From positions 64,001 through 128,000 of the IMG/VR virus record IMGVR_UViG_3300045988_143931: a stretch of 64,000 bases of DNA. One strand, 5' to 3'. Below are positions 1,571 to 44,788 of the stretch, in pieces. The stretch's first letter is position 1. The number at the start of each line of letters is the position of its first letter. Source of the stretch: a virus. The translations under genes and the position numbers were made by a program. The notes beneath the pieces were generated by a model. It was not told the DNA's origin. It was given only the letters and a program-made list of their open reading frames with translations, and searched no databases.

Positions 1571-2236
1571 TTATTTTTCACTAAACGAATTATTCTTATT
1601 AGGCATCTCCTCAATGATATCAGAATATTTATTATAGATGTTATTTTCAATTTCTTTTCTAGCTTTAATTGCATCATCTTTGTTAACAAAATAACCTAGA
1701 TGATGATTTTCACCATTAAAATATATTCTAGCCTGCCATTTTTGCTTATCTTTTTTCCATGATACACCAGGATAGCCGCTTGTATTTCTTGAAGTTTTTT
1801 TACCTAAATGAATAAAACTCTCTGCTTTTATGTTGCTATCTGGTAAATATTCTTCAGTTAGACATCCACAAGAATATCTTTTCACTAAATGAGAAATTGA
1901 AAGAGTTATCACATTGCCACATTTACATTTGCATATATACTGTGTACGACCATCTTCTCCTATAGTTGTGTCAATAACGGATAAAAGTCCAAATTTATCA
2001 CCTATTTTAACTCTTCCTTTTCCTAAATGTTTTTCTCTTTGATATTTTTTTTGATAGCACCCACAACTTTTTATTTTTTGCGATGTAATACTACTTGTTT
2101 GTGCATAAAAAATATTACCGCATTCACATTGACATTCCCAATACAATCTATTTTTCCCTTTATATTCTTTATATACTGGTTTAATTACTTTAAAATGTGG
2201 ATATTGTGTATTAGATAACTCTTTTCTCTTTCTCAT
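1571..2236 (-). CDS. AP2-domain DNA-binding protein with duplicated Cys module
   Basis: C-terminal YPGVSWKKDKQKWQARIYFNGENHHLGYFVNKDDAIKARKE matches the AP2/ERF fold signature. Two N-terminal repeats CxCxCGN...SCGC. Start moved to the ATG at 2236 (AGGAG 5 nt upstream). Confidence 0.7.
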   Translation of the reverse strand: MRKRKELSNTQYPHFKVIKPVYKEYKGKNRLYWECQCECGNIFYAQTSSITSQKIKSCGCYQKKYQREKHLGKGRVKIGDKFGLLSVIDTTIGEDGRTQYICKCKCGNVITLSISHLVKRYSCGCLTEEYLPDSNIKAESFIHLGKKTSRNTSGYPGVSWKKDKQKWQARIYFNGENHHLGYFVNKDDAIKARKEIENNIYNKYSDIIEEMPNKNNSFSEK

Positions 2237-2253
2237 TTTCTCTCCTAAAATCA

Positions 2254-2508
2254 CTACTGAAGCTGTTCTTCTATTTCTTTTTCGTTAAGAAATGATAAAT
2301 CATCAATATAAACACACACCTCTTTATTTTCTGTAAGAATCCAAATTACATCTCTTCCATTTCTACAAGTATTTAATGTAATTGTATCATCATTGATCCA
2401 CGATTGAATATTCTCTTCATCCAATTCATAGTTTATTTCATTTAATGCTTCAATAATTGCCTTCTTTTCCCTATCTTCTACCTTTGTGTTTTCGTTCCAT
2501 ACTAACAT
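2254..2508 (-). CDS. hypothetical protein
   Basis: Track ORF; TGGAGG RBS. Confidence 0.6.
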   Translation of the reverse strand: MLVWNENTKVEDREKKAIIEALNEINYELDEENIQSWINDDTITLNTCRNGRDVIWILTENKEVCVYIDDLSFLNEKEIEEQLQ

Positions 2509-23911: not shown

Positions 23912-24018
23912 GATGATGGAGAACCCATCACAAAATGATGATGTAGATTTTGTGACCTACCCACTCAAAGAGTGGGTAACGCACTAGGCTTGACACGGTT
24001 TATACTCGCCTAGTCGAG

Positions 24019-24447
24019 TTATTTAGCCATACGGCTCTGCTGATTATCCATGAACTTTGTAGCATCTTCGGCAGACTTGAACTCGTAAATCTGCACATAC
24101 TTGTCATCCTTTGCAAGTGCGTCATAGACCTTATCACCCTTGCCAAGCTTAGTTGCACCAAAGTCTTCAGTCGCAGACATCTTGATGGCAAACCTAGCCT
24201 TGCTTGACAGAAATGCACCCTTGACTGTACGGACGAACTTGCCATCGCACTCAAGAGAGCCGACAATCCGTGTAGACTTCTTAGATGCTGTCTTAGGCTC
24301 TGACTTAGGTGTTGTGTCTTTAGGTGTCTCTGTCTTAGGCTGTTCAACTGCTCCAAGTCCTAAGAGTTTAGCGATTTTCTGTGCTTCTGTAGCGTTAATC
24401 TGATAAGCTACTCCATTAACGATAACTGCATTCTTTAATTCTTTCAT
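24019..24447 (-). CDS. hypothetical two-domain protein, compositional outlier
   Basis: Protein-like translation MKELKNAVIVNG...PKTETPKDTTPKSEPK linker...C-terminal domain. Markedly higher G+C than all neighbours. Start taken at the ATG at 24447 (GAAAGG upstream). Confidence 0.65.
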   Translation of the reverse strand: MKELKNAVIVNGVAYQINATEAQKIAKLLGLGAVEQPKTETPKDTTPKSEPKTASKKSTRIVGSLECDGKFVRTVKGAFLSSKARFAIKMSATEDFGATKLGKGDKVYDALAKDDKYVQIYEFKSAEDATKFMDNQQSRMAK

Positions 24448-24720
24448 AATTACCAACCTTTCTGTCTCATCTTAGAGACTTAAAAAAATATTTTTTGTTC
24501 ACTGAACTGCTCGTCAGCCGTTCAGCTTGGCTACACCTTATCACAAAAAAATTCTGCTTGTTTCGGTGCAAAACTTCCAAAAATGCTTATTTTTCGTGGT
24601 TTTGAGTATGGCGAGAATGGGGGGTGGCAAAAACGGATTAAACCCTTATGAAATGTAAAACCAGGTATAGCAGGTTTATTTACACACCAAGTCAAAAAAT
24701 TTTTTATTAAAAATAAATTA

Positions 24721-36108: not shown

Positions 36109-36429
36109 ATTACAATACAACAAGGAAAAAAATATTATAATCAAAATGATATTGCAAATGAAATTCGTAATAGGATTGATTGTTCATCAATAGATGTACT
36201 TCGTGTACTTAATTCGTTAGGTGATGTGGTAAAGGATAAATTTAGTGATAGTGATGAATATGTTGAATTAAAAATATTTCCTGGACTAAAAGTAACTTCA
36301 AGATATATACCACTTGAACAATCTAAATCTAATCTTAATTTAAAAAATAATTCTATTTTATCTATTACTTCAGTGTTCACTGATGATTTTCGTAAAAAAG
36401 TTAGAGAATTACATAATAATTTAGAATGA
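36109..36429 (+). CDS. HU/IHF-like DNA-binding protein with a non-canonical start
   Basis: The frame is open from 36055. YNQNDIANEIRNRIDCSSIDVLRVLNSLGDVVKDKF...VELKIFPGLKVTSRYIP has an HU-fold pattern. A perfect AAAGGAGG (36100-36107) is followed only by ATT (36109) and ATA (36115). The first canonical start (GTG 36226) would delete helix 1. Confidence 0.5.
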   Translation: MTIQQGKKYYNQNDIANEIRNRIDCSSIDVLRVLNSLGDVVKDKFSDSDEYVELKIFPGLKVTSRYIPLEQSKSNLNLKNNSILSITSVFTDDFRKKVRELHNNLE

Positions 36430-36559
36430 AATCAGCTTTTCTTAATATCCTGCCCTATAGGGGCATTACATAATATTAAAAGTTTATCTCATAAGCTAAC
36501 CTCTCTTTCTTATATCGGTGGTTACATTATTTTGATAATGGTGTAATCACTGATACTCT

Positions 36560-36631
36560 TCCCATATAGTTCAATGGTAGAGCAACGGACTGTTAATCCG
36601 TAAGTTACAGGTTCGAATCCTGTTGTGGGAG
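36560..36631 (+). tRNA. tRNA-Asn (GTT)
   Basis: Cloverleaf by hand: acceptor TCCCATA/TGTGGGA, anticodon loop CTGTTAA, T-arm ACAGG-TTCGAAT-CCTGT. Confidence 0.85.
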
Positions 36632-37459
36632 TTATCCTATTTTTATAGGACTGGTCGGTTTCGGATCAGAGAATATTAAATTCTAAAATAAGCATGGTGA
36701 CATGTATAAAGTGGTTCTTATCGCATTATAAGGCTGCGACTGTAGTGATACAGTTTGACGGAAAACACATAGGATTTATACCTAACCTAAAATCAGAGGG
36801 CTACTGCTAATGATATGGTTCGGTAGGTGTCATGAAAAAGGCACTGTTAATTAACACAGAAATGTGGGGATAATCCGTGTATGGTTGGTGGAAATACCGC
36901 AAGTATAACTGCTAGTCATATTTTGGTAATATCTCTTAAGTTGAAAAACAGGGATAGAATCAAAAAGCAAGGAGATCGCAATCCAAGCAGGATGGTGATG
37001 ATTGGGCGGTACTCAAAAGGTACTGATGGTCAAATATACACCTCATCGTCCAAAATTTAATTACATACTTTTAAATTGGTCAAATAATAGAAAAGATAGA
37101 TTATTTAAAGAAAATAACAAGCAAAAGTGTGTATGACCGCAAAGAGAAAAACAACTTATTGTCCTGTAATATGGACACATATAACACTCGCAAGGTGTTA
37201 TGTGAGAAAGTACAAGTATATGCAACTCTAATAGGCTGCAACCTATGAATCTCGCAAGGAAGAATGTGTAAAAAGAAAATCTATAATGCTTTGTGGTAAG
37301 AGTTTGCCAGTTATGTCAAAACTGGTGTTGTTGCTACCTACTGTCTAATCGACAGTGTGATAAATTGTGTCCAACCGCAATAGATGGTAGTGTATTGAGT
37401 CAATATCTCAGCTCATATTAAGTAAGAGTCTCATACTTCGGTATGGGATTTTTTATTTT
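36632..37459 (+). ncRNA. candidate large structured ncRNA (GOLLD/ROOL-class or novel)
   Basis: No ORF of 60 aa or more in six frames over about 0.8 kb, lying between two tRNAs. GNRA-capped hairpins at 36693-36704, 36739-36754 and 37181-37201. CTCGCAAGG occurs twice and ACCGCAA three times. The region ends in a UUCG hairpin plus U-run. Confidence 0.45.
37430..37459 (+). terminator. intrinsic terminator (UUCG-capped)
   Basis: 7-bp stem 37430-37436/37441-37447, loop TTCG, then ATTTTTTATTTT. Confidence 0.65.
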
Positions 37460-37533
37460 GGGAATTAGTTCAGTTTGGTTAGAACGCCTGATTTGGGTTC
37501 AGGAGGTCGTGGGTTCAAATCCTACATTTCCAA
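37459..37533 (+). tRNA. tRNA-Pro (TGG)
   Basis: Acceptor TGGGAAT/ATTTCCA, anticodon stem CCTGA/TCAGG with loop TTTGGGT, T-arm GTGGG-TTCAAAT-CCTAC. Confidence 0.8.
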
Positions 37534-37571
37534 CTACTATTCTACTTTGTAGGAAATAAATCAAGAAAGAA

Positions 37572-37718
37572 GTGAAAATTATTAAGTACATTTCAAAAAA
37601 TGAAATTGAAAAATTATTATTCGAAGGTGTAATTAGAAACACAAGACGAGGATATGTAGATCGCAGAGGCGAACATATTGGATATTACAAGACTTGCTTA
37701 AGTAGGTTCTGCTTATGA
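37572..37718 (+). CDS. hypothetical small protein (48 aa)
   Basis: Hand-called GTG start (MKIIKYISKNEIEKLLFEGVIRNTRRGYVDRRGEHIGYYKT...). Its stop overlaps the next ATG (ATGA coupling). Confidence 0.45.
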   Translation: MKIIKYISKNEIEKLLFEGVIRNTRRGYVDRRGEHIGYYKTCLSRFCL

Positions 37719-40744: not shown

Positions 40745-40827
40745 GGGTAGGTATGCAAGTGGTTAAAGTAGGCAGACTGTAAATCTGTTGGCGAAAGCCT
40801 TCGAAAGTCCGAATCTTTCCCTGCCCA
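40745..40827 (+). tRNA. tRNA-Tyr (GTA), class II with long variable arm
   Basis: Aligns position by position with bacterial tRNA-Tyr. Anticodon loop CTGTAAA. T-loop is TCCGAAT (C at position 55). Confidence 0.85.
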
Positions 40828-40858
40828 CTAAAATAATTAAAATAAATAAAATATTACA

Positions 40859-40900: not shown

Positions 40901-41947
40901 GTGAAAGGAAGTGATTTAGTGGCACATGTAACAAGGGTAAAATATTTTACCAAGGATAAGGAGAAATTCATAAATCCTGATAACTTGAAGAAATATAAAA
41001 AATATCTCCAATCAAATATTATAAAAAATCAGGATGTTAAAGATACAACATATAAAAGATATGAGGGATTGTTTCGTCATTTTCTTATGTGGCTAGGTGA
41101 AAACTATGGTGATTTAGATTTATATTCAAATGAGTTTATGGAGAATGCCGTTGATATTATGGAGAATTATATTATGTTCTGCCAGGAAATACTTCTGAAT
41201 CATAAAAAGATTATCAACATGAAAATCTCTGCTATTAGTTCATTCTATATTTGGTCTATGAAACGTGGTTTTGTTAAATACCATCCTTTTGATGGGAAAC
41301 TTGATAGAATGAAGAAAGCTAATGAGGAACATATTTTAAATTCGTATTTCCTTACAGAAGAACAAGTTCAGACAATCCGTAGAGAATTATCTGAAAATGA
41401 TAAGTATTCAATTCAAGATCAAATTTTATTTGAAGTAAGTTTTGACTCAGCAAATAGAATTGGTGCATTGTTAAGATTGCAGTTATCCAAACTTGATTTA
41501 GAGAACAATATGTTTGTAGATATAAGGGAAAAAGAAGGATACCGTACACAGGTAGTTTTCGGGGATGTTGCAAAAGAGCTTATTCAAGAGTGGCTTGAAA
41601 TGCGAAAGAATGATTATGACCACTTGGAATGTGATTCATTGTTGATCACAAAATACAATGGAGAATATAAACCTATGGGTGACAGTGCAATCAGAGATAG
41701 AATGAAGAAATATGGCGAAATTATTGGAATTTCTGACTATAGACCTCATTGCCAGCGTAAGACTAGGCTAAATCTTGTATATGAGGAAACTGGTGATTTA
41801 GCATTAGCAGCCGAGCTTGCCAATCATCGATCCACTGAAACAACTAGAGAATTTTACTGCCGCAAGCAGACCAAAGCAGAGGTTATGAATAAAATCAATG
41901 CTCTAAGAAGCAAAAATTCTAATGTTGCTGACGAAGAGAATAAATAA
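40901..41947 (+). CDS. tyrosine recombinase family protein
   Basis: R (SANRIGAL), HxxR (HCQRKT) and H...Y (ANHRSTETTREFY). The start may be the GTG at 40919 (AAAGGAAG RBS). Confidence 0.8.
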   Translation: MKGSDLVAHVTRVKYFTKDKEKFINPDNLKKYKKYLQSNIIKNQDVKDTTYKRYEGLFRHFLMWLGENYGDLDLYSNEFMENAVDIMENYIMFCQEILLNHKKIINMKISAISSFYIWSMKRGFVKYHPFDGKLDRMKKANEEHILNSYFLTEEQVQTIRRELSENDKYSIQDQILFEVSFDSANRIGALLRLQLSKLDLENNMFVDIREKEGYRTQVVFGDVAKELIQEWLEMRKNDYDHLECDSLLITKYNGEYKPMGDSAIRDRMKKYGEIIGISDYRPHCQRKTRLNLVYEETGDLALAAELANHRSTETTREFYCRKQTKAEVMNKINALRSKNSNVADEENK

Positions 41948-44600: not shown

Positions 44601-44605
44601 CTCAT

Positions 44606-44689
44606 GCCGTGTGTCCGATTGGTCGAGGGTGCTGTCTTGAAAACAGTCTGGATGTAAAAGTCTTTAGGGTTCGAATCCCTAACACGGCG
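44606..44689 (+). tRNA. tRNA-Ser (TGA), class II
   Basis: Acceptor GCCGTGT/ACACGGC, anticodon loop CTTGAAA, long variable arm, T-arm TAGGG-TTCGAAT-CCCTA. Confidence 0.8.
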
Positions 44690-44788
44690 TTCTAAATAAA
44701 TTGCACTTTCATTGGAAATTTAATATTGGAAATTATGAGAAGTTATTTCGTATGAGGTGGCTTCTTTTTTATATTGAAATAAAAGGAG

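Follow-up and report, generated by a model that had tools for sequence, protein, structure and literature searches.

The window, a stretch of 64,000 nucleotides of viral DNA considered here at its full length, encodes a large terminase, a portal protein, an exonuclease, an integrase-like protein and an endolysin, and is thus phage DNA. The element under study occupies positions 36633-37458 on the plus strand (826 nt), where it lies between the genes for tRNA-Asn(GTT) and tRNA-Pro(TGG). An earlier note had described this interval as a tRNA-flanked, hairpin-rich region that is free of ORFs and less AT-rich than its surroundings, and the closer analysis agrees: both tRNA genes are present on the plus strand, no ORF of at least 60 aa lies between them (the longest, at 36881-37060, spans 59 aa) and the GC content is 0.36-0.39 inside the element compared with 0.24-0.30 in intervals centred just upstream, the contrast with the downstream side (0.30-0.33) being weaker. 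The minimum free energy predicted for the 826 nt is -213.8 kcal/mol, compared with -182.7 ± 5.9 kcal/mol for 20 dinucleotide shuffles (z = -5.26).

The individual hairpins that the note had picked out are likewise found, namely CATG-GTGA-CATG at 36693-36704, ACTGTA-GTGA-TACAGT at 36739-36754, ATAACAC-TCGCAAG-GTGTTAT at 37181-37201, the CCAGTT/AACTGG pairing at 37307-37325 and CTCATAC-TTCG-GTATGGG followed by a U-run at 37430-37458. The duplicated CUCGCAAGG (37187 and 37251) corresponds to two CGCAA-loop hairpins located at conserved positions of the GOLLD consensus. The string ACCGCAA, which had been noted as a triplicate, does occur three times, but it is not a repeated motif, since the three copies play different structural roles: the copy at 36896 forms a stem end and loop, the copy at 37136 is a strand of a long-range helix and the copy at 37374 contributes a loop and stem. 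We therefore reject ACCGCAA as a functional repeat, because its roles differ in the helix table.

Elsewhere in the window, an integrase-like ORF (40901-41947, plus strand; PHROG integrase, E = 6e-28) directly follows tRNA-Tyr (40745-40828), a hint of a temperate lifestyle or of an attachment site linked to the tRNA. A Pistol ribozyme (RF02679) at 23951-24019 on the minus strand scores 60 bits against a gathering score of 34.5 and is situated at the start region of minus-strand ORFs (24000-24456). The tRNA-Ser(TGA) called by ARAGORN at 44605-44690 (plus strand) also gives a sub-threshold Rfam match to tRNA-Sec (37.2 versus 47 bits) and is most likely a Ser tRNA with a long variable arm.

In a default Rfam scan of the window, tRNAs and the one Pistol ribozyme are the sole matches. 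In a permissive scan of 36400-37700, the GOLLD model RF02032 aligns end to end (model positions 1-416 of 416) with 36990-37414, exclusively on the plus strand and with a score of 100.3 bits (E = 7.7e-27; E = 3.8e-25 for the whole window). GOLLD is missed by the default scan because this score does not reach the Rfam gathering score of 150 bits, which is an operational annotation threshold rather than a structural feature. The UCAAAAG loop, AAGCAAAAGU, the two CUCGCAAGG hairpins and the terminal AUCUCAGC are in register with the model and are invariant across 32 homologues. Indeed, the order of elements follows the GOLLD model throughout, running from the UCAAAAG hairpin through an A-rich variable stretch, AAGCAAAAGU, the long-range helix ACCGCAAAG/CUUUGUGGU and the two CUCGCAAGG hairpins to the GCCAGUU/AACUGGU hairpin, a three-way element and the terminal AUAUCUCAGC hairpin. 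The RNA measures 783 nt to the terminal GOLLD hairpin and 826 nt including the 3' hairpin, in a family of about 800 nt. Together, these features place the element almost certainly within the GOLLD family.

The earlier note had left open whether the region belongs to the GOLLD/ROOL class or is new, and had proposed a covariance-model scan as a check. The GOLLD part of this suggestion stands, the ROOL part does not. ROOL is also a large ornate RNA of phages and prophages that forms a closed RNA-only cage and occupies the same niche near tRNA islands (PMC12286853), but the element bears no sequence or structure match to it, with ROOL, HEARO, OLE and raiA all giving nothing at E ≤ 10 across 36400-37700 and ROOL nothing at E ≤ 0.01 across the whole window, which leaves membership in any of these known large-RNA families with a negligible probability.

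The RNA has a two-part build, consisting of a structured 5' domain of about 357 nt, the UCAAAAG hairpin, an AU-rich linker, the conserved 3' domain and an extra 3' hairpin with a U-run (Table 1). In the GOLLD family, the 3' region is universally conserved and the less conserved 5' region forms a separate domain, with a disordered variable linker (PMC12286853). The AU-rich stretch of the window RNA, which aligns with the low-confidence A-rich stretch of the Rfam model, corresponds to this variable linker of PMC12286853. It may be closed by an invariant helix (helix 16; 37063-37069/37126-37132), the 3' strand of which lies in the adjoining core; this helix is predicted, with zero double changes. 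In the 5' domain, the invariant GAAA loop may be the conserved L11a loop described in PMC12286853. At the other end, the 3' terminal hairpin (helix 28) is 97.9% paired with compensatory changes in six of its eight pairs, and together with the U-run it resembles an intrinsic terminator, a terminator scan returning a site at 37424-37453. The U-run is present in most members of the subfamily described below; four aligned homologues in which tRNA-Thr comes next retain the hairpin and have no U-run.

Table 1. Positions of the RNA, its structural elements and its flanking features in the window.
Feature	Position	Strand	Basis and remarks
Candidate leader hairpin ATCGGTGGTTACA ... TGTAATCACTGAT	36514-36554	+	Ends 4-5 nt before tRNA-Asn
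tRNA-Asn(GTT)	36559-36632	+	ARAGORN; Rfam tRNA 72.4 bits at 36560-36631; no encoded CCA; abuts RNA 5' end
GOLLD 5' domain, about 357 nt	36633-36989	+	RNAalifold on 32 homologues; 5' hairpin and 13 covariation-tested helices
5' hairpin	36635-36650	+	In 5' domain
GNRA-capped hairpins	36693-36704 and 36740-36753	+	In 5' domain
Long-range 5'-domain helix	36767-36776/36872-36880	+	Covariation-tested
CGCAA-capped helix	36883-36917	+	In 5' domain
Invariant GAAA loop	36943-36946	+	In 5' domain
First 3'-domain hairpin	36990-37051	+	RF02032 positions 1-61; helices 14 and 15, 99% paired, 7 compensatory pairs
Invariant UCAAAAG loop	37013-37019	+	Inside first 3'-domain hairpin
Variable AU-rich linker	37052-37118	+	Indel-rich, poorly conserved columns 495-658 of alignment A1
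Conserved 3'-domain core	37119-37415	+	RF02032 alignment; helices 17-27, 97.7-100% paired, all compensatory
Long-range core helix	37136-37144/37289-37297	+	In core
AAGCAAAAGU, two CUCGCAAGG hairpins and GCCAGUU/AACUGGU hairpin	within 37119-37415	+	
Three-way element	37332-37392	+	In core
Terminal AUAUCUCAGC hairpin	37396-37415	+	In core
3' terminal hairpin UCUCAUAC-UUCG-GUAUGGGA with U-run AUUUUUUAUUU	37429-37458	+	Helix 28; abuts tRNA-Pro
tRNA-Pro(TGG)	37459-37534	+	ARAGORN; Rfam tRNA 65.6 bits; abuts RNA 3' end

The secondary structure is supported by an alignment of 32 distinct full-length copies (alignment A1), for which RNAalifold predicts 184 base pairs, with double changes in 103; a 182-pair version was counted. 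In these 182 pairs, 98.7% of the cells are paired, compared with 31-44% in versions with the 3' partner slid by 1-3 columns, and compensatory double changes are observed in 103 pairs, compared with 11-21 in the slid versions and with no match to the observed value in 500 shuffles, a margin that is very large even though taking the consensus structure from the same alignment that was counted favours the structure. Thus, the covariation test among homologues that the note had also proposed turns out strongly positive. Compensatory changes occur in 11 of the 13 helices of the 5' half, whereas in the 3' domain each of helices 14, 15 and 17-27 has 2-7 pairs changed on both sides, and these 3' helices coincide with the independently curated Rfam consensus structure. 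The plus strand can be assigned as the RNA strand, because, read on the opposite strand, many of the invariant G-U pairs would turn into C-A mismatches.

A search within the subfamily for covarying unpaired columns, as expected of kissing loops and pseudoknots, yielded only weak candidates, and tertiary and quaternary contacts are without covariation because the loops are nearly invariant within the subfamily. The weak tertiary candidates are ACAAC/GUUGU at 37151-37155/37327-37331 and GAUA/UAUC at 37359-37362/37404-37407, the latter of which would be compatible with a contact that has been published for loop L27 and junction J24/26.

The same alignment excludes a protein-coding explanation. 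The 59-aa frame falls just below the 60-aa cut-off and could in principle be part of a hidden or intron-interrupted gene, but most homologues, among them the closest (93.6% identity), interrupt it with stop codons or frameshifts, the pattern of substitutions reflects base-pairing instead of codon periodicity, the lengths of indels are not multiples of three and the permissive Rfam scan finds no match to the group I or group II intron families, so that such a gene is exceedingly improbable. A conserved coding frame spanning the region, which the earlier note had named as an observation that would speak against a large RNA, is accordingly not found.

The relatives of the element were collected by scanning IMG/VR viral contigs with the motif AAGCAAAAGT, a gap of 45-75 nt and CTCGCAAGG, which returned 118 loci. 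The window element is matched by 44 of them, which we refer to as the subfamily, leaving 74 others. Most of the 44 cover the whole element with 72-94% identity, a few being partial or weaker (down to 69%), and the closest homologue is L004 at 93.6%. With a stricter three-part pattern, another 28 viral contigs are added, most of them 90-190 kb in length, so that the subfamily occurs in at least about 70 viral contigs, with lengths of 90-190 kb in many cases. These large phage contigs are of gut type. In a single scan of bacterial genomes, two members with 73-75% identity were found in bins named Lachnospira sp. and Kineothrix sp.; these sequences provide a hint, and no more than a hint, of Lachnospiraceae hosts, because phage contigs can be mis-binned. 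A blastn search of the element against 50,697 GenBank phage records found no homologue and matched only the flanking tRNAs, and a megablast search with 15 kb found one distant fecal phage record, in which the RNA is not covered.

The low score against RF02032 is shared by these relatives. At the gathering threshold, none of the 13 subfamily loci tested is reported; in E-value mode, seven of nine score 79-99 bits, the remaining two not being listed. In contrast, five loci from the same motif scan that lie outside the subfamily score 203-305 bits, so the subfamily, with 79-100 bits including the window, stands apart from other GOLLDs. The low score of the window element is thus a property of its lineage rather than the mark of a damaged copy, since its relatives also score low while other GOLLDs reach 203-305 bits. 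We read the below-threshold score as that of a divergent subfamily poorly captured by the Rfam model, not as the loss of a defining feature, and do not count it as a missing feature because the helices, loops and architecture of the family are all found. Compared with the model, the window RNA has one shortened 3'-domain hairpin and its central three-way region aligns poorly. The "or new" branch of the earlier note therefore falls away: the element is not a new RNA category, but a new divergent lineage of GOLLD.

Some members of the subfamily differ within the RNA itself. In eight of them (L073, L077, L083, L030, L101, L060, L048 and L072), a further 30-68 nt are inserted within the span of a 5'-domain helix (columns 197-254 of alignment A1), an insertion that is absent from the window. 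In blocks, the alignment also has a mosaic appearance between lineages, a pattern suggestive of recombination inside the RNA gene. One related phage contig (L028) additionally carries a skipping-rope RNA (RF02924; 1583-1651, minus strand; 49.5 bits, gathering score 36.7) at a distance of about 4 kb from the GOLLD of that contig; the Rfam scan finds no counterpart of this RNA at threshold in the window.

Beyond the 3' domain, the beginning of the 5' domain may also be shared with some other GOLLDs. A covariance model (R1) built from the first four 5' helices (approximately 36651-36756 of the window) and searched in the 74 loci outside the subfamily matches five of them, each match being individually weak (E = 0.009-0.046, with the E-values of the model being rough). 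All five are on the correct strand and lie 421-542 nt upstream of the 3' motif, compared with a distance of 470 nt in the window, and one of them is in L020, whose 3' domain scores 304.8 bits. In addition, a module resembling P1-P4 of GOLLD env-38 is recognisable by eye in the window, with the same order of motifs: a hairpin, AAAUAA, a GNRA-capped hairpin, GAUAAAGUGG, a hairpin, CUGCG and a second GNRA-capped hairpin. The env-38 sequence was taken from the supplement of PMC12286853, where the recovered text comprises 816 nt rather than about 835 nt. When this 816-nt text was added to the alignment by MAFFT, the 3' hairpin was visibly misaligned and about half of the pairs were kept; the numbering and contacts of env-38 are accordingly not transferable.

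The score of 100.3 bits against a gathering score of 150, as well as the absence of a homologue among the 50,697 GenBank phage records, would also suit an undescribed class of large phage RNA unrelated to GOLLD. We consider this very improbable, given that the match to RF02032 is full-length (E = 7.7e-27) with signature loops and helices in register, that the weak R1 match connects the 5' module with a locus bearing a 3' domain of 304.8 bits (L020) and that the element agrees with GOLLD in size, in tRNA context and in having two domains and a variable linker. Indeed, env-38 shares with the window RNA the length of about 800 nt, a separate structured 5' domain, a variable linker following the first 3'-domain hairpin and a location in a phage genome beside tRNAs, and the 3' domain matches the whole of RF02032 with the same helices and signature loops.

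GOLLD genes neighbour tRNAs, some members carry a tRNA inside the linker and env-38 itself lies downstream of tRNA-Met (PMC12286853). In the window subfamily, this association is near-obligatory. A same-strand tRNA directly precedes the first hairpin in 28 of the 34 subfamily loci with enough flank and a tRNA directly follows the 3' hairpin in 35 of 38, compared with 13 of 62 (upstream) and 14 of 71 (downstream) for the other loci from the same motif scan. The spacer between tRNA and RNA is 0-2 nt at both ends in nearly all subfamily members. The identity of the tRNA varies, being Asn or Met upstream and Pro, Lys, Thr, Asn, Phe, Ile or Glu downstream. Thus, what sets the subfamily apart from other GOLLDs is a conserved hairpin at the 5' end, a conserved hairpin at the 3' end, usually accompanied by a U-run, and a near-obligatory tRNA on each side; within the linker of the subfamily, no tRNA is found. 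In two members (L059 and L085), the tRNA directly downstream of GOLLD is called "tRNA-??? (ct)" by ARAGORN, which denotes an irregularity in the anticodon loop, and may be a phage tRNA of an unusual or suppressor type.

A candidate leader hairpin precedes tRNA-Asn in the window and is kept upstream of the leading tRNA in homologues, irrespective of whether that tRNA is Asn or Met. In the corresponding alignment (A2), 95% of the cells are paired, compared with 18-62% when slid, and double changes occur in 5 of 13 pairs. The hairpin may represent the 5' end, or a promoter-proximal leader, of a joint tRNA-GOLLD transcript. In homologues, a TTATAT- or TATAAT-like box precedes the leader hairpin. 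A consensus promoter scan found no consensus promoter, with 10 promoter-like matches compared with 11.7 ± 3.6 in shuffles, and no promoter is assigned because the matches do not exceed chance.

Taken as a whole, we regard it as very likely that 36633-37458 (plus strand) represents a GOLLD-family non-coding RNA of an uncultivated tailed phage, with the anatomy described above and a working that we envisage as follows. The RNA would be transcribed on the plus strand jointly with the upstream tRNA. Its 5' end would be made by RNase Z-type 3' trimming of the CCA-less tRNA-Asn: with no CCA encoded, trimming just past the discriminator base would generate the RNA 5' end. The 3' end would be set by the terminator-like hairpin and U-run or, on read-through, by an RNase P cut at the 5' end of tRNA-Pro. 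These putative ends build on the established biology of tRNA 3' trimming and RNase P cleavage, and we propose only tentatively, at somewhat less than an even chance, that tRNA processing defines the ends of the RNA.

Once freed, the RNA of about 800 nt would fold into separate 5' and 3' domains. During lytic growth, copies of it could then assemble in the manner of env-38, held together by loop-loop and A-minor contacts, to form a closed multimeric RNA cage that has the variable linker in its interior. Cryo-EM of env-38 has revealed a closed homo-oligomeric cage, a 14-mer with D7 symmetry, and a rise in expression during phage lytic growth has been reported for the GOLLD family (PMC12286853). 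By homology with env-38, we lean slightly towards cage formation by the window RNA as well.

In a different working, the RNA, being a GOLLD, would not be excised at all and would act with one or both of the neighbouring tRNAs still covalently attached, for example so that the cage displays or sequesters these tRNAs. Such an arrangement would be in keeping with the spacers of 0-2 nt at both ends in nearly all members and with the hypothesis of covalently linked tRNAs put forward in PMC12286853, which notes tRNAs in some GOLLD linkers; a tRNA of this kind (2206-2276, minus strand) is present in the linker of the canonical GOLLD of L012 (203 bits; match at 1923-2362, minus strand). However, the flanking tRNAs score highly, lack an encoded CCA and look like ordinary processing substrates; in most members, the RNA is separated from the downstream tRNA by a terminator-like hairpin and U-run, and env-38 assembles without an attached tRNA (PMC12286853). 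We therefore consider an unexcised RNA improbable and retain release of the RNA from its flanking tRNAs as the preferred working.

The presence of tRNAs on both sides is not new as such, since it has already been described for mycobacterial GOLLDs, which have tRNA genes on both sides and lie within horizontally acquired phage-like tRNA clusters (PMC6582537); GOLLD in Mycobacterium tRNA arrays is also attributed to Morgado et al. 2020, as cited in PMC12286853. The mycobacterial setting is nevertheless different: the arrays, which are found in Actinobacteria, comprise about 32 tRNAs, and the RNA itself contains a pseudo-tRNA, whereas the window has one tRNA on each side, no linker tRNA, a low-GC phage genome and a possible Lachnospiraceae host.

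A parallel to the proposed release is tRNA punctuation. In mitochondrial polycistrons, transcripts are punctuated by tRNAs, and RNase P and RNase Z define the ends of the neighbouring RNAs. Similarly, tRNAs abut both ends of the window RNA, and across the subfamily their identity is swappable while their presence is conserved, which is what a processing handle would look like. The parallel is one of mechanism only, and most members also carry a terminator-like 3' hairpin that would be able to set the 3' end alone. A bolder reading is that selection acts on more than the GOLLD gene in this subfamily, the selected unit being a fixed cassette of leader hairpin, any tRNA, GOLLD, 3' hairpin and any tRNA, in which the tRNAs serve as processing handles. 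Host RNase Z and RNase P would then excise a GOLLD monomer of exact length, and cage assembly would perhaps be coupled to the maturation of the phage tRNAs. We put this cassette forward as a speculative and rather unlikely extension.

GOLLD is among the largest non-coding RNAs of bacteria and phages and forms an RNA-only cage. The subfamily reported here exposes a gap in annotation, namely a widespread lineage that is invisible to default Rfam annotation, and its addition to the Rfam seed would widen the family and sharpen covariation analysis. Its alignment provides unusually dense compensatory support for a complete secondary structure of the 5' domain. Moreover, the near-obligatory and swappable flanking tRNAs offer a concrete and testable idea on the origin of the RNA ends; if the cassette reading were true, it would constitute the first defined biogenesis pathway for GOLLD and a testable functional tie to tRNAs.
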